The notes under the pieces were generated by a model. It ran no database searches, was not told the origin of the DNA, and was given only the letters and a program-made list of their open reading frames with translations. A stretch of DNA of 32,000 nt from an uncultured Lentisphaeria bacterium (lineage in GTDB: Bacteria; Verrucomicrobiota; Lentisphaeria; JABSQK01; JAJFLO01), in NCBI GenBank assembly GCA_951812855.1, contig OX638337.1, positions 300,001 through 332,000 of the forward strand, given 5' to 3'. Shown piece by piece: positions 5,035 through 22,596 of the stretch. Each line of letters opens with the position of its first letter. The first letter of the stretch is position 1. A program made the position numbers and the translations under genes.

Positions 5035-5739
5035 ATGATTAACAGAATATTATTACTTACGGTTGTATTATTTTCAGCTACTTCTTTTAGCCAGATACTC
5101 AGTTTTGATGAAGTAAAATTTGAATTGGGTGACATTGATGACCTGTCACCAATAAGCCGTGAGGTTCATTACAAAAATACAGGTGATAAAGAACTGTCAA
5201 TCGAAAGAATAAAAACATCCTGTGGCTGTACCACCAGTAAACTTGAAAAAAAAGTACTGCTGCCAAATGAATCCGGAATGCTGACAGTCACCTTCGATCC
5301 AGCTGGGAAAAAAGGTAAACAGATTAAAAATATCACATTTATCAGTAATGATATTAACGATAAGAATAAAATCATTTCCTTTACCGCCAATATTATACCC
5401 GTAATTAATCTCGCTCCAAAGCGGATAGAGTTTGAGTTAGATCAATCTGGAAAAAGCTATGAGAAAAATGAAGAAATGTTCGTCATAGAAAACCTCGGGA
5501 AAGATCCGATTGTAATTAAAAGTATAACAGGCAATAGTGAAAATTTTATTGTAAAGGATCCAAAAATCACCACGGTTGAAGTAGGTGGAAAACTAAACAT
5601 TTCAGTAAGTATCAAGCCCGGATTTATTCCAGATAAATACACATCCACTAATATAAAAGTCAATGTTAAGATTGGCGAACAATCAGCGACTCGGTCAGTA
5701 CGCGTTGTTGCCAGACCACTGCTCGTTTCTCAAAAATAG
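5035..5739 (+). CDS. DUF1573 domain-containing secreted protein (two Ig-like modules)
   Basis: I place the start at the ATG at 5035, preceded by AAGGAG and followed by signal peptide MINRILLLTVVLFSATSFSQ. FKNTGD-like block HYKNTGDKELSIERIKTSCGCTTS is the DUF1573 hallmark. The 5' part of track ORF 4840..5739 overlaps sppA debris. Confidence 0.75.
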   Translation: MINRILLLTVVLFSATSFSQILSFDEVKFELGDIDDLSPISREVHYKNTGDKELSIERIKTSCGCTTSKLEKKVLLPNESGMLTVTFDPAGKKGKQIKNITFISNDINDKNKIISFTANIIPVINLAPKRIEFELDQSGKSYEKNEEMFVIENLGKDPIVIKSITGNSENFIVKDPKITTVEVGGKLNISVSIKPGFIPDKYTSTNIKVNVKIGEQSATRSVRVVARPLLVSQK

Positions 5740-5782
5740 GGTTCAGATAATATTCCTCTGTCAGACACCGGAAAATGATAAA

Positions 5783-6574
5783 TTACTTATTCCACCAATC
5801 AGACTCTTTCTCCCAGGGATTTTGAGGTTGAATATCTCCCCCATCGTCATTTCCTAACAATGTCTGTCTCATTAATTGGAAGTTAATCATACCTAAACTT
5901 AAGAAAATTATGACAGTAAACCAAATATTTATCCGGCTACTGAAAAAATTGGAAATTAATCCGATAATTATCAGAAAAAAAACAATAATGCCGGTGACCA
6001 GCATTGAGATTTTAAACGTTAATATTCGGCTTTCCCAGGGTTTCTTAATCGATATGAGTTCTTCCATAATCTGCCCACCGTCCAGAGGATAAACCGGAAC
6101 CAGATTTAACAAACTCCATAATAAATTTATATTGACCAAATATGTCAGCGTCATTGCAAAAAACGAACTAACGTCACCTATAGAGGAAAATTTAAGTATC
6201 AGGCATGCCAGTAAACACATAATGAAACCTGCTCCCGGGCCAGATAACAGCTGAATAATAAACTGGTTGCGTTTTAGTTTTGTACGGCTGATTGTTACCC
6301 CGCCCATGCCGTAAAGAACAATTTTTACGTCAGTTGCCCCAAAATACCGTGCTGCCACTGCATGCCCCAACTCATGGACTAAAACGGACAAAAAAAGACA
6401 AAACATAACGTTAAAATTACGAATAAGTGTTGCGTTATCATTCCAGGCGATAAAAATAATAATCAACCAGAACCAGGGATTAATACGAACTGGTATCATA
6501 TTCCAAATCTTGAAGTTTATATCATACCGAGTTTTTTGCGGGTTTAGAAACACCTGTACCCCATTATCTGTCAA
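5783..6574 (-). CDS. site-2 protease family (peptidase M50) membrane metalloprotease
   Basis: HExxH motif in a TM helix (LVHELGHAVAARYFG) plus the second metal-ligand block NLVPVYPLDGGQI. Multiple hydrophobic segments. Confidence 0.8.
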   Translation of the reverse strand: MTDNGVQVFLNPQKTRYDINFKIWNMIPVRINPWFWLIIIFIAWNDNATLIRNFNVMFCLFLSVLVHELGHAVAARYFGATDVKIVLYGMGGVTISRTKLKRNQFIIQLLSGPGAGFIMCLLACLILKFSSIGDVSSFFAMTLTYLVNINLLWSLLNLVPVYPLDGGQIMEELISIKKPWESRILTFKISMLVTGIIVFFLIIIGLISNFFSSRINIWFTVIIFLSLGMINFQLMRQTLLGNDDGGDIQPQNPWEKESDWWNK

Positions 6575-6674
6575 TCATTCAGGAAGTGAATTTTTATAAC
6601 ATTATTCATTGGACGAAGTTGCTTCTATTGCACACAACTAATCGACATAAACCATTTATCCGCAGCTGTGACTA

Positions 6675-7133
6675 TTAATAAAAATTGACGTGATGATCAA
6701 TTAAATCACCATTCTTATACACTAGTTTCCCTGAAAAGAAACGATGATCTTTAAGCCATTCAAGAAATAAAAAATCACCTTCCCATAAGTTCAAATTAGA
6801 GATGTTATTATCGTCTACCCATTGAAGATGTCCTTCTGGAGAGTCGATTAATTTACCCGAAAATTGGTTTGCGAGGAATACAAACACATACCAATCTTCA
6901 TTTTTAGAAAATTTTGGAAATGTCAAATGCCCTTTTAATACCGGGTATTTGATTGTCAGTCCAGATTCCTCATATACCTCTCGAATGATACAATCTTCCG
7001 GCGTTTCTCCCGGGTTCAACTTTCCACCTAAACCATTCCACTTCCCATTATGGATATCATTCTTCTTTTTAATTCGATGGAGCATGAGTGTTTTATCATT
7101 TTCTTTGATATAACAAAGTGTGGCAAGTTTCAT
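6675..7133 (-). CDS. Nudix hydrolase (MutT/8-oxo-dGTP diphosphatase-like)
   Basis: Nudix box GKWNGLGGKLNPGETPEDCIIREVYEESGL (Gx5Ex7REUxEExGU). Confidence 0.8.
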   Translation of the reverse strand: MKLATLCYIKENDKTLMLHRIKKKNDIHNGKWNGLGGKLNPGETPEDCIIREVYEESGLTIKYPVLKGHLTFPKFSKNEDWYVFVFLANQFSGKLIDSPEGHLQWVDDNNISNLNLWEGDFLFLEWLKDHRFFSGKLVYKNGDLIDHHVNFY

Positions 7134-7257
7134 GTAAAAAACCTCTGATTGAGAAATTTGTTTCGAGAAAATTCATGGATTATCGAAAAAATCTATTACG
7201 TAAACCTTCTAAGGATATTCGCCCATGCATTGAGAACTGAAAATAAACTGAGAACAT

Positions 7258-8178
7258 TTATTCAGAAAAAAGTGCTTCACAGAACACTTTGGCATTAAAT
7301 ATCTGAATATCAGATTCTTTTTCACCAAGACCAACAAACTTTATCGGCAGCTTAAATTCATCGTGAATAGCAACAACAACACCGCCTTTACTTGTTCCGT
7401 CTAACTTAGTTATACATAATCCATTTATATCTGCACTGGATTGAAACATTTTAGCTTGCTGCAAGGCATTTGTTCCTGTAGAACCATCCACAACCAACCA
7501 TGTTTCATGGGGTGCGTTACTAATCGCTTTTTGAATAATACGTTTTATTTTTGCAAGTTCATCCATTAAGCCCTTTTTCGTATGTTGTCGACCCGCAGTA
7601 TCAATAATCAATATATCCGATTTTCTTGCAGTCGCTGCATGTACAGCATCAAACGCTATGGATGCCGGATCAGCACCATATTTCCCGGAAATCACCTGAC
7701 AACCCGTACGTTCTCCCCAGATTTTCAATTGTTCAATTGCAGCAGCTCTGAATGTATCACATGCTGCAAGGAGTACTGATTTGCCCTCCTGTTGCCACAT
7801 GTTCGCGAGTTTTCCAGTTGTTGTCGTTTTTCCGCTGCCATTTACCCCGACCATTAAGATAACGGTTGGTCCGGATTCAGCATAAACCACTGGCGTTTCA
7901 CAATCATCAGACAAAAATACGTAAAGCAATTGTTTCGTGCATTCAATGATATCAGATGTTGTATGAATGACTCCTCTCTCATACTGTTCCTTTATATATT
8001 CGACAATTCGCCGGGTTACCTGCACTCCCAAATCGGTTCTAATTAATGCTTCCTCAAGTTGTTCATAGTCGATTTTATCCCAGGATTCAGCGGCACCGAA
8101 AACTGATTGGATATTACGAACTAACAGCGTCTTACTTCGTTGAAGGCCGGATTTAAATTTAGTATATATCGTTTCCAT
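7258..8178 (-). CDS. ftsY: signal recognition particle receptor FtsY (short form, no acidic A domain)
   Basis: NG domain motifs VGVNGSGKTTTTGKLA (G1), DTAGRQHT (G3), TKLDGTSKGG (G4) and FVGLGEKESDI. Confidence 0.95.
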   Translation of the reverse strand: METIYTKFKSGLQRSKTLLVRNIQSVFGAAESWDKIDYEQLEEALIRTDLGVQVTRRIVEYIKEQYERGVIHTTSDIIECTKQLLYVFLSDDCETPVVYAESGPTVILMVGVNGSGKTTTTGKLANMWQQEGKSVLLAACDTFRAAAIEQLKIWGERTGCQVISGKYGADPASIAFDAVHAATARKSDILIIDTAGRQHTKKGLMDELAKIKRIIQKAISNAPHETWLVVDGSTGTNALQQAKMFQSSADINGLCITKLDGTSKGGVVVAIHDEFKLPIKFVGLGEKESDIQIFNAKVFCEALFSE

Positions 8179-8327
8179 CGTTTTTAATTATACTGCCCGG
8201 TATTCATACAAAATCTCAGAAGTCGTTTTATTTTATGGAAAAAGGTAAGTATTATAACTGGAATCAAACTGTGTTTTTCCCAAAAATATATCGATTTAGA
8301 ATCCACTTCTATATCGATCACAGGAAT

Positions 8328-8783
8328 TCAGTTAATCTCTTTTTTATTAATATTGTCTAAAATACCATTCACAAACTTACCTGAATCATCACCACCAAAC
8401 ACTTTTGCTATTTCAATTGCTTCATTGATACTGACGGCCGGCGGGATCTTTTCGTGGTAAAGAATTTCATAAATTGCAATTCGCAGGATATTTCGGTCAA
8501 CGACTGCCATTCGTTCAATACGCCAATTTTGTGCACATTTAATTATTTCATCATCTATATTGGCCAATTCTTTTTTAACTCCATTGACGATGGATTCTGC
8601 GACGCCTCTAATCTTATTCGTTTCTTTTTTGCCCAGGTTATTTTCAAGTTTAGCGATTTGCTCACAAAAATACTCAAGCAAATCGTGATCAAATGTGTCT
8701 TCAGTAATATCAAGTTGATATAATAACTGCAGTGCCCATTCTCGTGCTTTTCGTTGAATCGGTATTATATTTTTAATTTTCAC
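8328..8783 (-). CDS. nusB: transcription antitermination factor NusB
   Basis: [15 protein letters not shown]...[21 protein letters not shown]...[31 protein letters not shown] is the NusB pattern. Sits in ribH-nusB synteny. Confidence 0.9.
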
Positions 8784-8916
8784 AAGGGGGAATACACATT
8801 ATTTGCATAGATGATTAATAACTGAAAATCGTGAATAAGCTTGTTGCCATTTAGGGAAATGAAATCAGATTAAGACTTAGATTCTGTTGCGCAGCATTAA
8901 ATAATATACAGTCTGG

Positions 8917-9393
8917 CTACAGCTGCTTCATTAAATTAGCCATTTCTATTGCACATTCAGCTGCTTCCGTTCCTCTGTTACCAACTTTTGATCCGCTGCG
9001 TTCTATCGCATGTTCAATAGTTTCTGCAGAAACTATTCCAAATATTATCGGCAATGAATTTTTCATTCCGATTTCAGCAAGTCCACTTGTAACCTGGCCG
9101 GTGATAAATTGTGCATGCGATGTCGCTCCCTGAATCACGACCCCGAGAGCAATGATAGCGTCAAACTTTTTACTTTCAGCTAATCGTTGAACCACTAAAG
9201 GGATTTCAAATGATCCCGGCACCCAACATACAGTAACATTATCAGGCTCACCTCCATGCCGGGTTATACAGTCTACTGCACCATCTAAGAGTTTTGTTAC
9301 AAAAAAATCATTAAACCTGGCACAAACGATACTGAACTTTAGATTTTCCGCCTGAAGGCTGCCTTCAATAATATTTGATGAATTTATTTCCAT
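8917..9393 (-). CDS. ribH: 6,7-dimethyl-8-ribityllumazine synthase
   Basis: FSIVCARFNDFFVTKLLDGA...WVPGSFEIPLV...DAIIALGVVIQGATSHAQFI...GIVSAETIEHAIERSG are RibH signature blocks. Confidence 0.95.
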   Translation of the reverse strand: MEINSSNIIEGSLQAENLKFSIVCARFNDFFVTKLLDGAVDCITRHGGEPDNVTVCWVPGSFEIPLVVQRLAESKKFDAIIALGVVIQGATSHAQFITGQVTSGLAEIGMKNSLPIIFGIVSAETIEHAIERSGSKVGNRGTEAAECAIEMANLMKQL

Positions 9394-9544
9394 TATAATT
9401 CTACCTTGATTTTACCAAAATTTGATTGACCTGAGAAAAATTGAATTGAACCGGAAAGTTGTAAAATTCAGCCATACTTTAACACCTGTCAGCAAATTTT
9501 TCTGTTTAAAACCTTTGAACTCAATCGTATTTTAGATTTGATCA

Positions 9545-10741
9545 TTAAAGAAGGTGACCCAATCGTTTCTTTTTAGTTTTTAAATAAAATTCATTTTGAA
9601 CTTTTGGCTGGATAATAATTGGAATTCGATTATTTATGTTTATACCGAATTCACTTATATCCGATAACTTGGTTGGATTGTTTGTTAATAATCGAATATT
9701 ATCAACCTCCAGATCTTTCAAAATTTGTGCAGCGACACTGTATTCTCTCATATCCGGGGGAAAGCCAAGTTTTTCATTTGCTTCAACGGTATCCAATCCC
9801 TGTTGATCTTGAAGAGTATATGCTTGAATTTTCTTGATTAATCCAATTCCCCTTCCTTCCTGTCGCAAATAAATTAATATTCCTTTACCCCCTTTTACAA
9901 TTTGTCTCAATGCAAATTCAAGTTGATCTCCACAATCACATCGGGCTGAATGAAAAACATCACCCGTCAAACATTCACTGTGAATTCTGACGAGAACATC
10001 ATCCTGATTTTCGATTTCACCATAAACCAGTGCTATATGTTCCTGTCTATCGACTTTTGAGATATAACAGTGCAGGTCAAAATCATTATCCGCATAGCGA
10101 GTTGGCATTTTCACTGTTCCCGTCTTTTTAATGAGACGTTCATGTTTTTGACGAAAACCGATAAGCTGTTTAATAGAACACCATTTTAGCCTATGCTTTT
10201 TCACAAATTTATCTAAATCAGTCAACCGGGCCATTGTACCATCATCATTCATGATTTCACATATGACACCTGTTTCATTGCAGCCGGCTAATCGTGCAAG
10301 ATCAAGAGCAGCTTCGGTGTGTCCTGGTCTTTCCAGTACCCCCCTCTCACATCCGATAAGCGGGAAAACATGACCCGGAAAATCAAAGTCCTCTCTTGAG
10401 GCAGTTGGTTTCGAAAGCAAATTAATTGTTCGAGCTCGGTCTGCTGCTGAAATTCCTGTCGAAATATCTCTGGCCGCGTCAATGGATATGGTAAAGGCGG
10501 TATTAAATTTATCCTGAGTAACTGCCATTTTTGATAAATCAAGCTGTGCAGCTTTTTCTCTGGTAATGGGTGCACAAATTAGACCGCGACCCCATTTTGC
10601 CATAAAATTTATAGTGTCCGGAGTCGCTTTATCCCCGGCCATAATGAGATCACCTTCATTCTCTCTATTTTCATTATCCACAACAACAACGATTTTGCCG
10701 CTATGAATATCACTAATTACTTCTTCAATCGTATTAAACAT
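9545..10741 (-). CDS. ribBA: bifunctional 3,4-dihydroxy-2-butanone-4-phosphate synthase / GTP cyclohydrolase II
   Basis: DHBP synthase half: [17 protein letters not shown]...GLICAP...RPGHTEA. GCH-II half: [23 protein letters not shown]...[14 protein letters not shown]. Confidence 0.95.
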
Positions 10742-11088
10742 GTTAATTCCCTGAAATGAATCTCGTCTGTATGGATGAATTACATTTCCAATTTTATTCT
10801 AATCCTGTAGAATTGCACACTATAGTTTTATTAGTATACTTGACCAGCGTGGTAAAATACAAATATATAAAAATTGAATTTAATGAGTCAAATTTTTAGC
10901 ACTATCACTTTTATAACATTCAATCACGAAATATCTATATATTTTATTAGCACAATCAAATAAATAAATTTTTTCCCTGTAGCCGTTGAAGGCCAAAACC
11001 TGATTATTTTAAAGACATATTGTTGGAAAACAAATTGATTGGTTGTACTATCTAACGAATAATTTTAGGGGGAAGATAACTACAGTAA

Positions 11089-12399
<1,311 letters not shown>

Positions 12400-12415: not shown

Positions 12416-13099
12416 ATGAATAAAAAAAATAATTCTGTGCCTGACTGGGATAACTGTGATAATTGGAGAGAATGCGACTGGGAAAACGCGTTAAAATATA
12501 GCGATGACCTGGCATCTCAATATTTTCACATGCTTGAACAATACAGCGACCTGCCTTATGCCGAAGATCTGATCGCTAAAAAATTGAACGAAAAAAACAT
12601 GGTACCCTGCGACCATGTTTTTGGCGATTATGAATGGTACACAGATTCAAAAGAACAGGACGATTTTGACGATGATTTTATTGATCCTGAAGTCGAAATC
12701 GGGGGAAGCCAGCCTGGCGATTCATTGTTTTATGAAACAAGTCCAATATATCAGAAAGCAAGCCAGATTACTCTGGGCTGGTGCAACGTCCTGTCATCAG
12801 TGTTGAGCCCTGACGACAGGTTTCGGGGGCTTAATGTTCTCTTTCATATGGGGAGAATGTTGTCATTTATTTCTTTAAGTATTTCTGATGGCACTTATGA
12901 ACATATCAATGGGAACATGATATTTACAAAACGAGCATTAAACCTGGTTAATCAAATATTGGGCGAATTGAAGAAAATGGAAAAAAAATGCTCCCGATAT
13001 ACCACAGTATTTGATATCGTCCAGAAACACCTCCTTGAATGTCATGATCTGCTCATTGATTATTTATTGGAATGTAAAGACCGGCAAAAGAAAGGCTGA
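12416..13099 (+). CDS. hypothetical protein with an acidic, Trp/Cys-containing N-terminal half; no family recognised
   Basis: A 227-aa ORF starting 16 nt after eno on the same strand. No motif I can name. The coding call rests on length, position and composition only. Confidence 0.5.
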   Translation: MNKKNNSVPDWDNCDNWRECDWENALKYSDDLASQYFHMLEQYSDLPYAEDLIAKKLNEKNMVPCDHVFGDYEWYTDSKEQDDFDDDFIDPEVEIGGSQPGDSLFYETSPIYQKASQITLGWCNVLSSVLSPDDRFRGLNVLFHMGRMLSFISLSISDGTYEHINGNMIFTKRALNLVNQILGELKKMEKKCSRYTTVFDIVQKHLLECHDLLIDYLLECKDRQKKG

Positions 13100-14157: not shown

Positions 14158-14345
14158 CCAGAATTCCGAACAAACTGTCCCGAACGGAAAATTTTTGTCA
14201 ACTCTACATTATCCAGAGTCTGTCTTATAAAATGTAACATACTTGAGTTAAGTAAGATGTGACCCGGATTATATTGTTATGCACAGTAATAATTGGTCAT
14301 AATGTCTAAAAATAACAATTATAATCAAAAAAGAGGGCCACATGT

Positions 14346-14619
14346 TTAGAAACTGTTATACCCTTCCAGCCTGAACTTGTCACTGCAATACCAAACGTTG
14401 TCAATAATAAAGAGTTTACTCAATATTGTCGGGATAATTTTACAAGAATTATTACGTGGTTTAAGTCGTCGGTCAGCCGGGAACTCAACTATCGGCACAG
14501 ACATATTGCCCGGGCAGTTTTGCCACACATATGGGTATTGGCCCGGTTGCCAAAAACTCAGCAAGAACATTCAGCAAAATCGGCGTAAACGGTTTGACCG
14601 AACATTGGACGTTCAACAT
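14346..14619 (-). pseudogene. candidate decayed PII nitrogen-regulatory protein (glnB/glnK-like) remnant; needs one frameshift and carries internal deletions
   Basis: Frame A, from the ATG at 14619: MLNVQCSVKPFTPILLNVLAEFLATGPIPICVAKLPGQ. E. coli GlnB for comparison: [39 protein letters not shown]. The Met, [IV]4, [IV]8, KPF9-11, K34 and G37 are co-linear.
Frame B: VPIVEFP resembles YMVDFLP, SC resembles TC, TIL resembles TII, SKLFIIDNV resembles GKIFVFDVA, and KFRLEG resembles RIRTGE.
The T-loop and the TGKIGDG block are largely missing. The GlnB sequence is recalled from memory and no alignment statistics were computed. Confidence 0.4.
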
Positions 14620-14784
14620 AGACAAAACCAACGACTTTAAAAATGGTAATAACAGTGAAATTCCCGATTTTTTATGAAAGGATCTCTTCGGTAGACTTAA
14701 AAATTGATAATCGTAACAGGACAGTCTAAAATTAAATCTGATCATTATTGAAAATCAGCTTTTCCAAGACAAGCTCTAAGTAAT

Positions 14785-17700
14785 ATGAAATTTGATTCCA
14801 ATCAAGAAAAGGAAATATCGACATTATTTTCCAAGCTGCCGGATAATATGGGTCACTGTGCGGACAGCCTCAAGTCCCGACTTCATGAACTCTTTTCATG
14901 TAAATTATTAGAAGCAGATAAGCGAAAACAATTATCTTACCACCTAGTGGAAATTTTGCCCCAACTGCCGGACCCGGTTCAAGCTTCAACTTTGTTATCA
15001 ATTCTATTTCAACGGATTGATTCAAAAAAAGAATTTACATTTATTTTCACTGAACATGTTCTGCACCAATTGTTAGCATTATTTTCGTTTTCAGGGAATT
15101 TTTCTAATTTCATTCTAAAATATCCCAATACGATAAATAGTATTTTCCCGATCGAAAAGGAATCTCTCAAAGATGTTTCCGACAGATACAATAAAATTTT
15201 AGACCAACCAGAAAACGATCCAAAAAAATGGCTGCGACTGTTCAAAGCAAGGGAATTTATAAAAATTGCCTTAGGCGATTATTTAAAATTCGATAATTTC
15301 CAGGAGTCGACGCATAAAATTTCGATGGTGGCTGATATCTGTTTGCAAAAAGCATTGGATTTTGCTGACATTAATAATTCTGATATTGCAATCATGGCAA
15401 TGGGGAAACTGGGCGGTTTCGAATTAAACTACAGTTCGGATATTGACTTACTGTTTGTAGGCAATAACAGACTAAGTTCCGACGAGATTTATCAATTGCA
15501 AAAAAAATTAGTCAACTTCCTTCATCTCATCACCCAATCAACAGAAGACGGTTTTGTTTTTCGAGTTGACAACCGATTACGACCAGAAGGCTCTACCGGA
15601 TCGTTACTTAGAACATTAGAACACTACCTTGAATATTACCAGAAACGCGGTGCACAATGGGAATTTCAAGCACTGATAAAAGCACGATACAGCGGTGGTT
15701 CCAAAGCTGTAGCTGATGAATTCATTAAATCCACCCGTCCTCTTGTTTACAATACAACAATTTCATCTGAAGAATTGCTGCAGAGTGTACGGGACATGAA
15801 ACGTAAAATAGAAACCTGCCTCGTCAGTAAAAATAAGACAAATAAGAATGTAAAATTAGGCAGAGGTGGAATCAGAGATATTGAATTCATTGTGCAGTTT
15901 CTACAATTACACCATGGCCGAATTAACAAGAATCTAAGAGTGGCTGATACTCTCACAGCAATACAGAGATTGTCTGCACATCGTATAATTAAGACTGAAG
16001 AAAAAAATGTTCTTCAGCGAGAGTATATTTTTCAGAGAAAACTTGAGCATTGTCTGCAAATGACTGATAACCTCCCGGTACGTCAATTACCCCGGGACTT
16101 CAAAATATTGGATATACTGGCCCGGAAATTAGGCAAAAAAAACTCGAAAACCAAATCTGCGGCATTGCAATTGGAAACTCAATATCATAATTCCACACTG
16201 AAGATTCGTAATATCTTCAATAATTTTTTTAATACGACGATTGAGTTCCTTGAGAAGAAAAAAATTGTAAGAGAAACCTGCCCAGAAATTAAATCAGATA
16301 TTCTAAACAATCACTTTACACGGTTAGAGAGTGATTATTTTTTAAAATTCAATGTTAATGAAATTATTCAACACATTCACATGATTAGTCACTTATCACC
16401 AAATCAGCTATGCGATGTCAGTGTAGAAAAAGTTAAAGATATTACCAAAGTCACAATCGCAGCCTTTGATTATATTGGTCAGTTTGCCAAAATATGCGGG
16501 CTTTTTTCCGCTTACGGTCATAATATTGAAAATGGAGAATCATTTACCTATTCTGCACCGGCAAAAAAGAGTGCACTTGAAAAAAACACATTTTATCGAA
16601 GACCTGGAAAACGTTATTATTCTCTTAAATCTCTCCCCGAAAAAAATCATTTTGATGAACGAAAAATTGTTTGTGTTGCGAACCTGAAACGCAATTCCTC
16701 CGCCAGAAAAGAAGATGTATCATGGAATGATTTTCAAAGAGAATTAGAAGAGTTACTAACACTTCTGCGTGATCAAAAACACGATGAAGCAAGTGAACGA
16801 ATTACGTTACGGGTAATTAGTTCGCTAAATAAAAATCCTGAAAAGAATGAGATATTACGGGCACTGCCGCCTATTTTTTATACCTTCGACAACAACTCTG
16901 ACCAACAGTACACCATTCTCGAAATCGTCAGTCCAGACAAAGTACTGTTTCTCTTTGACTTTTTTAATGCATTGGCAATTAAAGGTTATTACATCGGAAA
17001 AGTAGAATTTCAAACCATACAGGGAACACTTCGGGATCGATTATTTCTGACAACAAAAAATGGTAAAAAAATCATTTCTGAAAAGAAAAAAAGAAATCTT
17101 AGACAAACCATGACAATGATCAAACAATTTTCCCAGTTCCTTCCATATGCACCGAATCCATTACTGGCATTAAAACAATTTAATGATTTACTCGAATGCT
17201 CACTGGAAGTAAAACAAAAAGGTATGATTCCAATCATTGAACAAGAAGATATCATGGAAGCACTGGCCAGAATTTTGGGAACCAGTTCATTTCTGTGGGA
17301 GGATTTCATTAGAATGCAGCATGAAAATCTTTTACATTTACTTGATGATGCAAGTCAGCTCGATAAACCACATGATCCCATAGAACTTGGAAACGTGCTT
17401 AAAAAGCAACTGAGTCAGTGCAAAAATCACAAGTCTTTTGTCAAAGTACTCAATGAATTCAAGGATAAAGAAATGTTCAGAATTGATTTGCGCCACCTCA
17501 CCCGCCGCATAAAACATTTCCGTGATTTCTGCAAAGAACTAAGTGATTTGGCTGATATTGTAACAAATGAAGCTTATTTCATTGCACTAAAGTACGTAGA
17601 AGAAAAAATGAATTGCAAGGAACCCGGTTTGTCAGGAATCTATGCCCTGGGAAAATGGGGCGGAAGGGAAATTGGCTATGCATCTGATATTGAAATACTA

Positions 17701-18471
17701 TTTATCTGGGACACCAGTGAGGATGAAAAGAATACTCATTTAACATTTTATGAACAGACTGCTCAAATAATGACACAATGTATTAAAACCAAGCAGGACG
17801 GGATTTTTGAACTTGATTTCCGATTAAGACCTGGAGGTAAAAATTCATATCTGACAACGTCCTGCAACCGATTTACAAACTATTTTTCTCAAGATGGCGA
17901 GGCTGATTTTTACGAACGTCAGGCCTTAATAAGGTTACGGCCTGTAGCAGGCAAAAAAAATCTGCACCGAAAAATAGAAAACCATCGCTTAAGTTATGTT
18001 TTTGGTTCTCTGCCGATAAATATAGATAGAATCAGCCACCTGAGGACACGACAGGAAACCGAATTAGTGCAAGCACAAAATATCAATGCAAAATTTAGTG
18101 CCGGAGGGTTAGTTGATGCAGAATATTATATCCAGATTTTACAGATGAAATATGGCAGTAAACACAAAGATATTCGCAGCACAAATACGCTTATAGCTGC
18201 AAAAGCATTAAAAAGACATAAAATTATCAGTCCGGAAGATTACAACAGATTGGACGAGGGTTACCGGTTCCTTCGTGCACTCATTAACGGGTTAAGGATC
18301 GTTCGGGGAAACGCAAGAGACCTTGTTATCCCTCCACCTGATTCTCAAGAATTTCAGTTCTTAATAAGAAGATTGGAAAGTTTTGAACATCCTCCCGGAA
18401 TTGATGATGCCTGGCAATATATCAAATTGCAGATGCAGATTGTTCACCAACTTTTCAAGAGTTTAAGCTAA
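14785..18471 (+). CDS. glnE: glutamine synthetase adenylyltransferase / adenylyl-removing enzyme (GlnE) with an inserted GlnD-like linker and two ACT-like domains
   Basis: Two GlnE nucleotidyltransferase repeats: GKLGGFELNYSSDIDLLFV...FRVDNRLRPEGSTGSL...WEFQALIKAR, and GKWGGREIGYASDIEILFI...ELDFRLRPGGKN...YERQALIRLR. Each is followed by a GlnE helical domain (KLGRGGIRDIEFIVQFLQL and KFSAGGLVDAEYYIQILQM). The central insert is described in the findings. Confidence 0.9.
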   Translation: MKFDSNQEKEISTLFSKLPDNMGHCADSLKSRLHELFSCKLLEADKRKQLSYHLVEILPQLPDPVQASTLLSILFQRIDSKKEFTFIFTEHVLHQLLALFSFSGNFSNFILKYPNTINSIFPIEKESLKDVSDRYNKILDQPENDPKKWLRLFKAREFIKIALGDYLKFDNFQESTHKISMVADICLQKALDFADINNSDIAIMAMGKLGGFELNYSSDIDLLFVGNNRLSSDEIYQLQKKLVNFLHLITQSTEDGFVFRVDNRLRPEGSTGSLLRTLEHYLEYYQKRGAQWEFQALIKARYSGGSKAVADEFIKSTRPLVYNTTISSEELLQSVRDMKRKIETCLVSKNKTNKNVKLGRGGIRDIEFIVQFLQLHHGRINKNLRVADTLTAIQRLSAHRIIKTEEKNVLQREYIFQRKLEHCLQMTDNLPVRQLPRDFKILDILARKLGKKNSKTKSAALQLETQYHNSTLKIRNIFNNFFNTTIEFLEKKKIVRETCPEIKSDILNNHFTRLESDYFLKFNVNEIIQHIHMISHLSPNQLCDVSVEKVKDITKVTIAAFDYIGQFAKICGLFSAYGHNIENGESFTYSAPAKKSALEKNTFYRRPGKRYYSLKSLPEKNHFDERKIVCVANLKRNSSARKEDVSWNDFQRELEELLTLLRDQKHDEASERITLRVISSLNKNPEKNEILRALPPIFYTFDNNSDQQYTILEIVSPDKVLFLFDFFNALAIKGYYIGKVEFQTIQGTLRDRLFLTTKNGKKIISEKKKRNLRQTMTMIKQFSQFLPYAPNPLLALKQFNDLLECSLEVKQKGMIPIIEQEDIMEALARILGTSSFLWEDFIRMQHENLLHLLDDASQLDKPHDPIELGNVLKKQLSQCKNHKSFVKVLNEFKDKEMFRIDLRHLTRRIKHFRDFCKELSDLADIVTNEAYFIALKYVEEKMNCKEPGLSGIYALGKWGGREIGYASDIEILFIWDTSEDEKNTHLTFYEQTAQIMTQCIKTKQDGIFELDFRLRPGGKNSYLTTSCNRFTNYFSQDGEADFYERQALIRLRPVAGKKNLHRKIENHRLSYVFGSLPINIDRISHLRTRQETELVQAQNINAKFSAGGLVDAEYYIQILQMKYGSKHKDIRSTNTLIAAKALKRHKIISPEDYNRLDEGYRFLRALINGLRIVRGNARDLVIPPPDSQEFQFLIRRLESFEHPPGIDDAWQYIKLQMQIVHQLFKSLS

Positions 18472-19118
18472 TGCAAAAACGACGAGTTAAACGAAAACTG
18501 CCCCCCGGCTCAATTTTTATGATTTCATTAATGATGAAATCGATTTGTAAATCCTTAAGACTGTCAATCTCTGACTCGAATGGAGTATTCACGTGTACCT
18601 GGAACAAACCGACTATTTACATAGGCTGGCATAACCGATTGCTATGCCTCCCATATTTTCTCCCGATAACGTGCCGAAAAAATAATTTCGCGTTAACCAG
18701 CCAATCCAGAGATGGTGAATACATAGCCGACTATCTTAAATCCATAAACTTCCAAATTATCAGAGGATCGAGCAGTAGAGGTGGAATGAAAGCACTTATT
18801 CAATTAAAGAAACAACTAGAAAACGGTTCGTCCGTCATGATTGCAGTCGACGGCCCAAGAGGTCCGAAATACGAAGTCCAGCAGGGAGCAGCCTGGATTG
18901 CCTGCAAAACGGGAGCACCTATTGTTCCACTTAGTCTCAACACAAAAAAACATTGGAAATTAAAGAGTTGGGACAGTACTCAGATCCCGAAGCCATTTAC
19001 AGAAGCCGAATTAGTGGCAGGTGATCACTTTTATGTAGAATCTGACAATAAAAGTGAATTTGATTCCGCTCTTAAGACAATTAAGGAGAGACTAATGGAA
19101 ATTACGAACCTGGATTAA
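18471..19118 (+). CDS. DUF374 / lysophospholipid acyltransferase (LPLAT)-like family protein
   Basis: ALTSQSRDGEYIADYLKSINFQIIRGSSSRGGMKAL..L...L..G.SVMIAVDGPRGPKYEVQQGAAWIACKTGAPIVPL matches the DUF374 pattern (SxSxDGE...RGSSxRGG...DGPRGP). The ATG overlaps the glnE stop by 1 nt (TAATG). Confidence 0.65.
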   Translation: MQKRRVKRKLPPGSIFMISLMMKSICKSLRLSISDSNGVFTCTWNKPTIYIGWHNRLLCLPYFLPITCRKNNFALTSQSRDGEYIADYLKSINFQIIRGSSSRGGMKALIQLKKQLENGSSVMIAVDGPRGPKYEVQQGAAWIACKTGAPIVPLSLNTKKHWKLKSWDSTQIPKPFTEAELVAGDHFYVESDNKSEFDSALKTIKERLMEITNLD

Positions 19119-19194: not shown

Positions 19195-22100
19195 TTACTT
19201 ATCCCTTGCTCGAAAAATATTGCGTAAAGACGCCTCCCATTTTGGTTCCTGAATAGTTCCCGTTAATCGTCTTTCGAGTAAAATTACAAATGGATCAATG
19301 ACCTTCGGAAGCAATTTTGTAAATTGTCCGAAAAATGGTTTTAACGGTTCAGCTATGACCTGAAAATCAAGCAGGTGTGAACTCAGACCGTAATTCCCTC
19401 GTGCTGAAATCGCAATTAAATTACCATTTGTTCTAAAATCGGGCAATTCAACTTTCTCACCTTTAAAATTTAAATTGCTCTTAAAACTGGTGATTTTTCC
19501 CAGATCGTTTTTAGGTAATACTCTTCCAATTATCGCTTTACTGTTTAGCATACTCAAAAAATCTGATATTATAGGAACCTGCCACAGGTCTCCGTCATCC
19601 ACGATTATTTTTCCATTGCCATCGAATAGTACAACTGGGTTGCTATTATCAAAATCAACATCGATTTTACAACTTAATTTACCCGCTTTTATGTCTGAAT
19701 CTTCACCCTTTTGGTGGCTGATTAAATCACCAAAATTGACATCGAGAAATGTTAACCAGATTTTACCGGCTTCATCGGTGAAATTATATGAAATATCTCC
19801 GGTCGTCGTTCCACCAAACAGATTCCCGGTAATCCCGGTCAAGTTTAACTCATCAAATTCATTGACTATCGATGCAGTAATATTATTAACCGGAAAATCA
19901 TATACCTTATTCTTTTCTGAGAATATAGAAATTCTAACCATGTTATCAGATAGAATCCCTGAAGTTGTAACTGTATTAAATTCTGCCATAGGAATAACCG
20001 CTTTATCTAATTGATTTTGAAAAAGCCATGATGATCCCTGCTGGTTATAATTCCCTGTGACATTGGTACCGTTTAAATTACCCATCGAAAATTTCTTAAA
20101 CGAATAATCCCCGAAAATATCGTTATTATGATAAGTAATTCCCAGATTCAGATCAATTAACTCAGTATCTTCAAGACAAATAAATTGCGGTGTTGCCAGA
20201 TCTAACTGCAGCCTTCTATCTGTATAAGTGCTGTCAAACACAATATCATTACAAATCCCCTGAGTTGGATAATGAAAAAATTCGTTAGCGGCACCCGATA
20301 ATGAAAGATTTCCATTTTCTATAATACAACTGCTCTTAATATCTATTACGTGAAATGTTGCATTATCAAACGCTTCTTCTACAGTCAAATCAGCATCAAT
20401 TCGATCACCGTTTAGACTGAAATTCAATTTAATCGTTTCAAAGAGTGTCTGATACAACCGGGCATTCATTATTTCAGTGCTTGACGATAATGTTTTCCCG
20501 TCAAATTTACTTTCAGCAGTAATGCTGTCTGCCTTCCAGTCGTCGTATGACAGGGTGTTGGAATGGGATAAAATTGCAATTGATTGATCTTTGCAGATCC
20601 CCTCAAACAGGGAATCATTTATTTCAAATCCTAATCCATAAACTGATTTGGCATTTCCGTTTATGGTTGAGGCTTCTGATACAGATTCTATTTCTAAAAA
20701 CGCATTTTCAACAGTCCAGTCATTAAACTGACATGAGCGAATTTCAGCAGTCGTATTCGTTTGTAATTTATCAATATGTAATTTTGCGGTAAACTCATTG
20801 ATAAACACATTTTGACAGTCCAAATCACCCCCCTCCAGATCAATTGCAATATTCAAGCGAGGATCACCTTTTGTAAAGAATCTTCCCTGTGCTTTGACAG
20901 AAGGATTCTGATGAAAATAAAAACCACGTTCTATCAGGAAATTTTCCAGTTTAGGATTAAATAATTTAAGTAAAGACGGCGGATATAAATTACTTTCTAT
21001 ATCAAATAATAATTCACTTCTGCTGCCGTGTATCGCCAAGTGCCCGGATGCCGTTGTGTTTTTACTGACAATATCCCAATTATCGATTAAAATGAGAGAA
21101 TTTATATAATCAACGATTACGTGACCTGCAGCTTGTTCAACCGTTACACCATTATATTGAAAATTAGTCATCCGCACATCAGCATCAATAACCAGCCCAT
21201 GATTTGGAAATTTATTATTATAAACCAATTCAAGGTCAATATGAGGTTTATCTTTTTCGTTCCAATTGAACGGCATCCAAATATTCTTATAACTTTTTAT
21301 AAATCGTTCGTCATTGGTAAACGATGTTATAAAGTCTGGTTTACCATCGACAGTGGCCTGAATCATCAATTCTCCGGACTCAATATTAAATGTGCCATTC
21401 AGTAATATTTGAACATCAGATTCGAGTCGAATTATTGTATCCGAAAGTTCACACTGTTTGTCAAACAACTTTATCTGCCCGTTCATCGATGCGATCGTCT
21501 CATCCATTATCGTTATATTATTGACGTTTAGATCCATCACAATATCCCAATTGATTGGACTTGAAATCGGCGAAGGATTTAACCTTAATGTCGCAATAAG
21601 CGGCTTTTTCTTGAAAAGAGGAATAAATTCACTGTAATCTTTAAGTAGATTTGGAGAAATAACTTTGAGAATTTTATGTGGATAAGCCGTTAACGAAAAT
21701 TGACCGGAAATTTCCTCCCGCTCCAGATCCCAAATTGCTTCACCTCCAATATATTCCTGATTATCCATTTCCAGCTTTACATCTGAGATTGCCAGAATAT
21801 TCTGTGTGAAATCTCCTTTTAAGGTTAATTTCTCAATGTTTAGGCCTCGATATAAAAATTGATTGAAATTCACTCCCAACGATACACGACTGTCCAATAG
21901 ACGTGCCACCGGCAATTGAACCATTAGCGTAATTCCGCTTTGAGATAAATTACTGTCAGGATGGATAAATTGTTGAAATGAAGTTAATCCATTTGTTATC
22001 TCTTCAGAAATAAATGGAAGCCAATTATTACAGGTAAACGGGAGAAGTTTTATACGCTTCTGTTTCATTCTCAGCAATTCCTCATCGGTTGGTTTGATGA

Positions 22101-22596
22101 CATCGCCCTGAATGGTAATTTTAACCCCGCCAATAAAACCGGAAAAAGAGTCTATGCTGATTTTATCTTCAAAATTACGGAAGGCAAAATGGACATTCGT
22201 TAATCCCAAAGAATGATAACTATTATCTGCATTACGTTCAAACGGCACATGGAGATTACAGTTTTTACCATAAAGACTGGCAATAACAACGTCTCCTTTA
22301 ATTAAACGCCTCAACATTAATTTCAATTGAATTTTATCCGCAGTAACTATTGTTAACTGACTATGGCTATAATCAGTTATCTTAATGTCTTCTAAAGTAA
22401 TTCCGTCAATTAATCCAAAGCGAATATATTTGGCTTCTGCAGCGATCCCCTGATTTTGGATCTGGTCCCATATCCAGCTTTGAACGAATTGCGGCAACCC
22501 CTTCACCTGCCAGTAAAATAGAACAGATACAAAAAAAACTGCAGATAAAAAAAATATGAATATCAGCTTCTTAATTATTTTCATTTTCTGAATCAC
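19195..22596 (-). CDS. AsmA/TamB-like giant envelope protein (N-terminal membrane anchor, long beta-rich body)
   Basis: Single N-terminal TM helix (LIFIFFLSAVFFVSVLFYW). A 1133-aa repetitive beta-strand-like sequence. The C-terminal block NGNLIAISARGNYGLSSHLLDFQVIAEP...RRLTGTIQEPKW resembles AsmA-like C-terminal domains that end in a G-T-hydrophobic-x-x-P-K motif. Family recognised by overall pattern only. Confidence 0.6.
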   Translation of the reverse strand: MIQKMKIIKKLIFIFFLSAVFFVSVLFYWQVKGLPQFVQSWIWDQIQNQGIAAEAKYIRFGLIDGITLEDIKITDYSHSQLTIVTADKIQLKLMLRRLIKGDVVIASLYGKNCNLHVPFERNADNSYHSLGLTNVHFAFRNFEDKISIDSFSGFIGGVKITIQGDVIKPTDEELLRMKQKRIKLLPFTCNNWLPFISEEITNGLTSFQQFIHPDSNLSQSGITLMVQLPVARLLDSRVSLGVNFNQFLYRGLNIEKLTLKGDFTQNILAISDVKLEMDNQEYIGGEAIWDLEREEISGQFSLTAYPHKILKVISPNLLKDYSEFIPLFKKKPLIATLRLNPSPISSPINWDIVMDLNVNNITIMDETIASMNGQIKLFDKQCELSDTIIRLESDVQILLNGTFNIESGELMIQATVDGKPDFITSFTNDERFIKSYKNIWMPFNWNEKDKPHIDLELVYNNKFPNHGLVIDADVRMTNFQYNGVTVEQAAGHVIVDYINSLILIDNWDIVSKNTTASGHLAIHGSRSELLFDIESNLYPPSLLKLFNPKLENFLIERGFYFHQNPSVKAQGRFFTKGDPRLNIAIDLEGGDLDCQNVFINEFTAKLHIDKLQTNTTAEIRSCQFNDWTVENAFLEIESVSEASTINGNAKSVYGLGFEINDSLFEGICKDQSIAILSHSNTLSYDDWKADSITAESKFDGKTLSSSTEIMNARLYQTLFETIKLNFSLNGDRIDADLTVEEAFDNATFHVIDIKSSCIIENGNLSLSGAANEFFHYPTQGICNDIVFDSTYTDRRLQLDLATPQFICLEDTELIDLNLGITYHNNDIFGDYSFKKFSMGNLNGTNVTGNYNQQGSSWLFQNQLDKAVIPMAEFNTVTTSGILSDNMVRISIFSEKNKVYDFPVNNITASIVNEFDELNLTGITGNLFGGTTTGDISYNFTDEAGKIWLTFLDVNFGDLISHQKGEDSDIKAGKLSCKIDVDFDNSNPVVLFDGNGKIIVDDGDLWQVPIISDFLSMLNSKAIIGRVLPKNDLGKITSFKSNLNFKGEKVELPDFRTNGNLIAISARGNYGLSSHLLDFQVIAEPLKPFFGQFTKLLPKVIDPFVILLERRLTGTIQEPKWEASLRNIFRARDK

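Follow-up and report, generated by a model that had tools for sequence, protein, structure and literature searches.

A GlnD-like sensory cassette, best read as the regulatory head of the adenylyltransferase-type module, in a widespread and apparently undescribed GlnE subfamily

The 32,000-nucleotide stretch of DNA analysed here, called the window throughout, comes from an uncultured Lentisphaeria bacterium (contig OX638337.1, positions 300,001 to 332,000) and carries a glnE open reading frame (ORF) with an additional segment resembling the C-terminal part of GlnD. We consider it probable, at roughly 60 %, that the encoded protein is a bifunctional glutamine synthetase (GS) adenylyltransferase (AT)/adenylyl-removing (AR) enzyme belonging to a widespread long-form subfamily, in which a sensory cassette of the GlnD/ACR type is fused to the N-terminus of the AT-type module. 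ACR refers to a group of plant proteins described as GlnD-like (PMC10175843). The ORF and its three parts are delimited as follows, with coordinates in the window and residues of the GlnE protein:

14785..18471, plus strand: glnE ORF, long-form GS adenylyltransferase/adenylyl-removing enzyme of 1228 aa, with two Pfam GlnE and two GlnD_UR_UTase domains
14785..16236, plus strand: first module, AR-type, nucleotidyltransferase plus HEPN-like GlnD_UR_UTase domain (residues 1-484; from equivalog alignment and BLAST)
16237..17112, plus strand: GlnD-type sensory module (residues ~485-776, boundaries +/- ~15 aa; from GlnD model matches, hhalign and AlphaFold2)
17113..18468, plus strand: second module, AT-type, nucleotidyltransferase plus HEPN-like domain (residues 777-1228; from position and profile alignment)

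The encoded GlnE exceeds the E. coli enzyme (946 aa) by 282 aa, in agreement with the surplus of about 280 aa given in a first-pass annotation of this DNA. A Pfam scan of the protein returns GlnE (PF03710, E 5.7e-75) and GlnD_UR_UTase (PF08335, E 6.6e-34), each in two stretches, with every PF08335 stretch placed after a PF03710 domain. The top NCBIfam matches are three GlnE equivalogs, namely PRK14109 (438.9 bits at a cut-off of 625), PRK11072 (376.4 at 487) and PRK14108 (308.5 at 724). Since every score lies below its cut-off, the window GlnE represents a divergent subfamily and is not an equivalog by NCBI criteria. All three models align residues 1-484 to the N-terminal (AR) half and residues 801-1228 to the C-terminal (AT) half, and the E. 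coli-type GlnE model places residues 86-481 on its positions 23-436 and residues 818-1068 on its positions 547-807. As these two stretches map to separate halves of the model, the extra sequence sits between both halves. The second repeat starts at about residue 777, where LPYAPNP..AL..F pairs with LPQLPDP of the first repeat in a profile-profile alignment (96 %, E 4e-9), whereas comparing the beginnings of both repeats pairwise by Smith-Waterman gave no significant alignment. With the second repeat starting there, the extra segment comprises residues ~485-776 or window positions 16237-17112, and the narrower span previously assigned to it (16312-17075, residues 510-763) falls inside this module.

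Sequence comparison shows homology between the cassette and the C-terminal part of GlnD. Searched alone, it matches two NCBIfam models of GlnD, PRK05092 (E 3.9e-15, over positions 676-778 of 940) and TIGR01693 (E 5.6e-10, over positions 615-844 of 850); three other NCBIfam matches are weak (E 0.0013-0.043), two of them also to GlnD models. BLASTP aligns insert residues 18-104 to residues 655-742 of E. coli GlnD (E 1e-5), a stretch that spans the YF..H linker motif and the first ACT domain (ACT1). An alignment of the cassette segment from 36 sequences, termed A1, was used both for the AlphaFold2 model described below and for an hhalign family profile, which finds E. coli GlnD in one co-linear match covering GlnD residues 656-869 and thereby including the second ACT domain (ACT2; 87.8 %, E 3.3e-6). 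All three manual alignments to E. coli GlnD on which the first-pass annotation was built are hence reproduced, by BLASTP for linker and ACT1 and by hhalign with ACT2 included. In control searches a hidden Markov model (HMM) of the module recognised E. coli GlnD (E 7e-10) and had no real match in E. coli GlnE (E 0.056, negative domain scores), as is to be expected if the canonical enzyme is devoid of the cassette, which had likewise been proposed. At the family level, 31 of the 36 inserts are matched by the Pfam model ACT_ACR9_3rd and 15 by ACT (PF01842) at E<=0.01. At this level, the cassette has significant sequence matches to GlnD models and to the GlnD-like ACR family, and to none of the other enzyme families that contain ACT domains. 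The insert profile had no significant sequence match in the PDB (best E 0.6), and a solved structure of the GlnD C-terminus was not among the results.

The cassette is predicted with confidence to fold as a helical linker followed by two ACT-like domains. Its AlphaFold2 model (mean predicted local distance difference test, pLDDT, 84.1; predicted template modelling score, pTM, 0.84) contains four helices in module residues 1-51 and two beta-beta-alpha-beta-beta-alpha units at residues 59-178 and 214-304. The pair of ACT-like domains anticipated from the sequence is therefore seen in the model, in an order of strands and helices that has been reported for the ACT-like domains of GlnD, ACR proteins and plant basic helix-loop-helix (bHLH) factors (PMC10175843). 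The features of the cassette are (E, strand; H, helix; numbered as in the model):

16237..16389, plus strand: four-helix linker with the conserved Y..F.......H motif (residues 485-535; helices 2-14, 20-29, 32-37 and 40-51 of the model)
16411..16770, plus strand: ACT-like domain 1, beta-beta-alpha-beta-beta-alpha (residues 543-662; E59-66, E69-77, H82-92, E95-104, E143-152, H163-178)
16468-16485, plus strand: putative ligand-loop motif DYIGQF of ACT1 (residues 562-567)
16549..16662, plus strand: low-confidence basic/aromatic loop within ACT1 (residues 589-626, FYRRPGKRYY; pLDDT <50 at model residues 113-123 and 131-134)
16876..17148, plus strand: ACT-like domain 2, beta-beta-alpha-beta-beta-alpha (residues 698-788; E214-218, E226-233, H238-248, E252-261, E264-272, H282-304)
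16936-16953, plus strand: ACT2 loop DKVLFL (residues 718-723)

The linker, which BLASTP aligns to GlnD 655-700, shares its motif with the pre-ACT region of GlnD, and its residues Y34, F38 and H46 (module numbering) are conserved to at least 90 % in alignment A1. In GlnD and ACR proteins a loop of the D-R-P-G-L-L or D-x-x-G type before helix 1 is regarded as the putative ligand site (PMC10175843). The ACT1 loop of the present family follows the pattern D-[YH]-x-G-E-[LF], with Gly in 100 and Asp or Asn in all of 111 sequences; G572 is found in 111/111, and several pocket-lining positions of ACT1 are nearly invariant across distant phyla. For ACT2 the loop consensus is D-T-x-G-F-L, with Gly in 54 of the 111 relatives, and the last helix of this domain extends into the start of repeat 2. 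The basic/aromatic loop of ACT1 (model ~105-142), located between strands, differs in length among relatives, and FYRRP occurs in part of the family.

Compared with the PDB by Foldseek, the cassette matches ACT-type domains. The best match to the whole cassette is the N-terminal region of the M. smegmatis glutamate dehydrogenase L-GDH180 (7JSR, 9HV0; E 7e-5, probability 0.99-1.0). Further matches are the ACT-like domains of GL3 and maize R (probability 1.0, TM score 0.70-0.76), the isoleucine-bound regulatory domain of IlvA (probability >=0.96) and, more weakly, SerB2 (probability ~0.7), while LAGLIDADG and other matches were disregarded for their low probability. No GlnD structure was among the PDB matches. 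Modelling of the 744-aa unit of the window protein that joins the ACT pair to the AT-type module gave a pLDDT of 85.8 and a pTM of 0.79, with the ACT-like order again seen twice, and the confidence of this model fits a defined arrangement of both parts.

The catalytic motifs of both modules are intact:

15403..15450, plus strand: AR-module catalytic motif GKLGGFELNYSSDIDL (residues 207-222)
17650..17697, plus strand: AT-module catalytic motif GKWGGREIGYASDIEI (residues 956-971)

In the AR motif G, K, G, E, N, S, D219 and D221 are invariant in 103/103 aligned homologues that are ungapped there, and in the AT motif the same holds for G956, K957, G959, G964, S967, D968 and E970 in 111/111 sequences. 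The motif patterns of the family are GK.GG.ELNYSSDIDL for the first and GK.GGRE.GYASDIE. for the second module, each followed by D.RLRP; in the window protein these second, carboxylate-region motifs read VDNRLRP and LDFRLRP, respectively. The first module is AR-like, as it scores 159 bits with the AR half of E. coli GlnE and 124 bits with the AT half in BLAST, and 316 vs 258 bits in favour of AR as an HMM. The second module is likely to be the AT module. This assignment follows from its position, from its best stretch, which aligns to the C-terminal half in all three GlnE equivalog models, and from the motif ELGY in place of ELN[YF] in the AR module, a difference that also distinguishes the two E. 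coli halves.

The window protein had been described as a chimera; judged by its relatives, it is not a singular one. The cassette segment is present in each of the 111 homologues between 1100 and 1300 aa (observed 1146-1270 aa) obtained in the first protein search, and according to their source names these homologues stem from Chloroflexi, Anaerolineaceae, Rhodothermia/Bacteroidota, Spirochaetes, Omnitrophica and Planctomicrobium. The closest genomes are metagenome-assembled genomes (MAGs) of Verrucomicrobia (87 %, 52 % and 51 % identity over the segment) together with one Lentisphaerales MAG, the nearest named genome being the Verrucomicrobia MAG OFTM167. The window itself is ~98.7 % identical to the 1.94-Mb metagenomic contig ERZ18545485 ptg000035c (locus L001; 299 mismatches in 23.7 kb) and the two GlnE copies differ by 3 aa, so that the window comes from a closely related but not identical strain or sample. 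A search of 1.84 billion representatives (clusters at 50 % identity) with the cassette profile recovered at least 330 clusters at E<=1e-30, and 2884 when the limit was set at E<=1e-10. Among these, 143 new cluster representatives were sorted by custom HMMs for three parts, AR, ACT2 (in the names of arrangements, the ACT pair) and AT:

AR-ACT2-AT: 36 of 143 representatives, the arrangement of the window protein
ACT2-AT: 49 of 143, of which ~30 look full length (707-784 aa, module start at residue ~12-48)
ACT2-AT-AR, a circular permutation: 18 of 143 (1236-1299 aa, plus a partial 1179-aa and a partial 926-aa protein)
No AT-type module (ACT2 alone, AR-ACT2, ACT2-ACT2): 36 of 143, fragments
Duplicate ACT2 or AT calls: 4 of 143, irregular, mostly broken HMM matches

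In every representative that has both parts, the ACT pair lies immediately N-terminal of the AT-type module, while its position relative to the AR module varies among the arrangements. BLAST relates the module after the ACT pair to the second module of the window protein in every case, at 225-313 bits vs ~100 bits to the first. Because this adjacency is kept in fused, split and permuted relatives alike, the ACT pair is best read as the N-terminal regulatory head of the AT-type module, and we regard the adjacency as the strongest clue to its function. The earlier placement of the extra segment between the two halves is correct in terms of model alignment; the segment is nevertheless better described as the regulatory head of the second module. 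Split and permuted genes were located in the following loci:

Split GlnE, an AR-type gene (512-520 aa) beside a linker-ACT-ACT-AT gene (746-759 aa): L012, 6419-10241; L015, 265-4140; L016, 4387-8262; L014, 1-3848
Permuted GlnE (ACT-ACT, AT-type, AR-type): L013, 8001-11780 and 12879-16646; L017, 8001-11825; L019, 2498-6208

The context of the split form was taken from three ACT2-AT proteins in four loci. In three of these the AR gene immediately precedes the ACT2-AT gene in the same orientation, 43-51 bp apart, whereas in L014 the adjacent AR gene is found on the opposite strand in divergent orientation. The pair in L015 encodes proteins of 520 aa (AR) and 753 aa (ACT2-AT). That the split genes are frameshift errors was considered and rejected on account of the locus with the AR gene on the opposite strand. 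Two permuted paralogues are present in L013, and the third module of the second one is very divergent.

We propose that the ACT pair would bind a small metabolite reporting nitrogen status, most probably glutamine by analogy with GlnD and other ACT fusions. An occupied pair would favour the adenylylation of GS that the attached module carries out, or disfavour deadenylylation by the AR module. The enzyme would in this way gain a built-in nitrogen signal, for which GlnE of Proteobacteria depends on GlnD and PII-UMP, and PII may still contribute to its control. Three reports lead us to glutamine as the candidate ligand. The ACT region of GlnD is described as its glutamine-sensing part in PMC11190351 and PMC10175843, both citing Zhang et al. 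2010. In the Chlamydomonas alpha-amylase AMA2 a fused GlnD-like ACT domain confers activation by glutamine on an unrelated enzyme (PMC11190351). According to reviews, high glutamine moreover stimulates adenylylation by canonical GlnE (PMC6490700). The role in GS modification is consistent with the linkage of relatives to glnA genes seen in their loci and with the invariant catalytic motifs.

Neither in the window nor in the loci of its close relatives were glnA, glnB or glnD detected by family scans and tblastn. In other loci of the family, a GSI gene precedes one permuted member by 167 bp, amid genes for GatCAB, carbamoyl-phosphate synthase and amidotransferases. In L013, one of the permuted paralogues adjoins GSI-PII-Amt, and the other is arranged head-to-head with a GSIII gene. 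The adjacent GSI proteins of both relatives contain PLDKDIYDLP, a motif of the adenylylation-site type, and the tyrosine of DKDIYDLP is taken by us to correspond to Tyr397 of E. coli. In addition, glnK-amtB adjoins the family member P0014, and an amt gene is located near P0070. Genes resembling glnD are absent from all fetched loci of ~20 kb, the sole tblastn match of E. coli GlnD falling inside the GlnE gene of L008 itself. The GSIII gene of L013 (GSIII_N, Gln-synt_C, Gln-synt_C-ter; 5673-7766, minus strand) is separated by 234 bp from the permuted ACT-GlnE gene at 8001-11780 (plus strand). This head-to-head pair, a single case, hints at a possible control of GSIII by adenylylation.

Several observations weigh against reading the protein as an AT/AR enzyme with a GlnD-type sensor. 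For the cassette, two Pfam ACT matches had been predicted in the first-pass annotation, of which the one for ACT2 appears below the cut-off (ACT_ACR9_3rd, residues 700-778, 19.5-23.9 bits at a cut-off of 27; E 4.5e-5), and the one for ACT1 was not detected, this domain having no Pfam match in the window protein. Identity of the cassette to E. coli GlnD amounts to ~16-22 %, and the Gly of the ACT2 loop is replaced by Leu in the window protein (DKVLFL) and by Met in most of its closest relatives. For the catalytic part, the second module is tied between the E. coli halves in BLAST (80.1 vs 80.5 bits), its family HMM does not separate them (177 vs 169 bits), and neither does Foldseek, in which its fold is slightly closer to the AR domain 1V4A (TM 0.81) than to the AT domain 3K7D (0.65). 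The 32-kb window holds no nitrogen-metabolism genes and offers housekeeping neighbours only, among them enolase, ribAB, ftsY, amidase, DUF374, fmt, RNase E/G and purC. Finally, according to reviews canonical GlnE is already regulated by glutamine without any ACT domain (PMC6490700), and the ACT pair may consequently serve another purpose.

The most far-reaching claim of the first-pass annotation, a three-protein cascade collapsed into one polypeptide, is not supported as it was stated, because PII genes stand beside family members in two loci and glutamine already regulates canonical GlnE. In its full form, this explanation would have the ACT pair replace GlnD and PII altogether, resulting in a PII-independent enzyme in organisms without glnD, which we consider unlikely. 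It can draw on the sensing function reported for the homologous part of GlnD in the two articles named above, on the lack of a glnD-like gene in any fetched locus other than the lone match within the L008 GlnE, and on the carrier phyla, which lie outside the Proteobacteria and Actinobacteria where GlnD is discussed in the literature found. However, the glnK-amtB genes by P0014 and the PII-Amt-GSI genes by the L013 paralogue remove the argument from absence, even though the presence of PII alone is not proof that it acts on GlnE, and the absence of glnD applies to loci of ~20 kb. A further proposal, which we put forward as tentative and would sooner doubt than adopt, is that linker-ACT-ACT-AT constitutes a self-contained metabolite- (glutamine-)gated AMPylase that replaces the GlnD-to-PII-UMP branch in many non-proteobacterial phyla. 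Being modular, this unit would be combined with AR in three ways, with AR fused to either end of it or supplied by a gene of its own, and GSIII would possibly be controlled as well.

Sensing of another ligand by the ACT pair, for instance a different amino acid, 2-oxoglutarate or a nucleotide, seems to us quite improbable. The isoleucine-bound IlvA domain and, more weakly, SerB2 among the Foldseek matches would agree with it, as would the low identity to the ACT domains of GlnD and the diverged ACT2 loop in the clade of the window; the significant family-level matches nevertheless point solely to GlnD and the GlnD-like ACR family, and the attached enzyme and the neighbouring genes of its relatives all concern glutamine metabolism. 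Even less probable, in our estimate, is a purely structural cassette acting as a spacer, an oligomerisation surface or a docking surface for GS or PII with no small-molecule sensing. Such a role is suggested by the plant bHLH ACT-like domains, which are among the best fold matches and are not known as ligand sensors, by the loss of the ACT2 Gly in half of the family, and by the central regulatory region that E. coli GlnE also has between its halves (PMC12409994). It is at odds with the nearly invariant D-x-x-G and pocket positions of ACT1 (G572 in 111/111; D562 or N in 111/111), and if the cassette were a mere spacer, it would not have stayed with the AT-type module when genes were split or permuted. 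Mis-assembly or mis-calling of a fused ORF has practically no chance of being the explanation, as it is refuted by the 111 homologues of 1146-1270 aa, the near-identical independent copy on the 1.94-Mb contig and the copy in the 87 % MAG.

With GlnE of the E. coli type (946 aa; 1V4A, 3K7D) the window protein shares the two tandem modules of nucleotidyltransferase and HEPN-like domain, AR and then probably AT, the motifs G-K-x-G-G...S-D-x-[DE] and D-x-R-L-R-P in both modules, and the fold of the second module, which resembles 1V4A and 3K7D. In contrast to the window protein, the E. coli enzyme is without the ~290 extra residues of linker and two ACT-like domains and has D-x-D where the AT-type module of the window subfamily has an invariant D-x-E, this module being about equidistant from both E. 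coli halves. GlnD and the cassette have in common the co-linear homology (656-869), the ACT-like topology and, in ACT1, the loop of the D-x-x-G type. GlnD, however, contains an HD domain, for which the window protein gives no match, and carries its ACT pair at the C-terminus of the protein, whereas the window cassette is N-terminal of its partner catalytic module. The nucleotidyltransferase modules of the window protein are moreover GlnE-type, and GlnD models match a short core stretch besides the C-terminal region, far below their cut-offs. Among plant ACR proteins, ACT_ACR9_3rd is the best Pfam model for the window ACT2, but ACR proteins and AMA2 have other catalytic partners and a eukaryotic or plastid context, while the window protein features a tandem pair with a GlnD-type helical linker. 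The M. smegmatis glutamate dehydrogenase of 180 kDa, whose N-terminal regulatory region gave the top structural match for the model of the whole cassette (16237-17244), differs from GlnE in its catalytic domain. A weak profile match to 7A1D residues 495-584, covering the helical linker and an ACT-like unit, is not significant (E 0.87). The linker and ACT cassette may be a sensor module shared among enzymes of nitrogen metabolism.

As for the surroundings of glnE in the window, the gene downstream encodes a DUF374 protein and is a conserved neighbour in the closest clade:

18471..19118, plus strand: DUF374 gene, its start overlapping the glnE stop by 1 nt

DUF374 also follows the GlnE P0003 in L010 (13811-14464), which is the 52 %-identical protein on a 1.6-Mb contig. 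It is probably not part of the GlnE system. Upstream of glnE there is a gap of 627 bp (14158-14784), unusually long for a compact window of ~36 % GC, which contains no family-matching ORF, Rfam match or tRNA. Rfam and tRNA scans across the window found nothing, and there is accordingly no glutamine riboswitch or similar element near glnE. Two further ORFs of the window stand out. An ORF of 1133 aa at 19195-22596 (minus strand) has an N-terminal hydrophobic segment and no Pfam family, its sole family match being a weak one below threshold to a Leptospira-type GspN model (residues 10-104). An acidic ORF of 227 aa at 12416-13099 (plus strand), with a high content of Asp, Glu, Cys and Trp, is situated between the genes for enolase and amidase and is without Pfam or NCBIfam match.

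A full-text literature search found no description pairing GlnE or adenylyltransferase with ACT domains, so the architecture is apparently undescribed; the precomputed Pfam annotations of many relatives already list ACT models. Taken together, this is a real and widespread subfamily of GlnE that appears not to have been described and that also exists in split and permuted forms. The ACT-like fold has been stated to occur solely in GlnD, plant ACR proteins and plant bHLH factors (PMC10175843), and its predicted presence in GlnE would correct this statement. A GlnE bearing such a cassette does not establish a new principle. ACT domains are frequently added as allosteric units, and according to reviews canonical GlnE already responds to glutamine, so that a direct glutamine input is not new in itself.

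Bicyclic covalent regulation has its textbook case in the GlnD-PII-GlnE cascade, which the literature found describes for Proteobacteria and Actinobacteria. For other phyla, here Verrucomicrobia, Lentisphaerales, Planctomycetes, Chloroflexi, Bacteroidota/Rhodothermia, Spirochaetes and Omnitrophica, the question of how adenylylation of GS is adjusted would find a concrete and testable answer in a GlnE with its own GlnD-type sensor, for which the split form and the circular permutation represent ready-made dissections that point to the catalytic module to which the sensor belongs.

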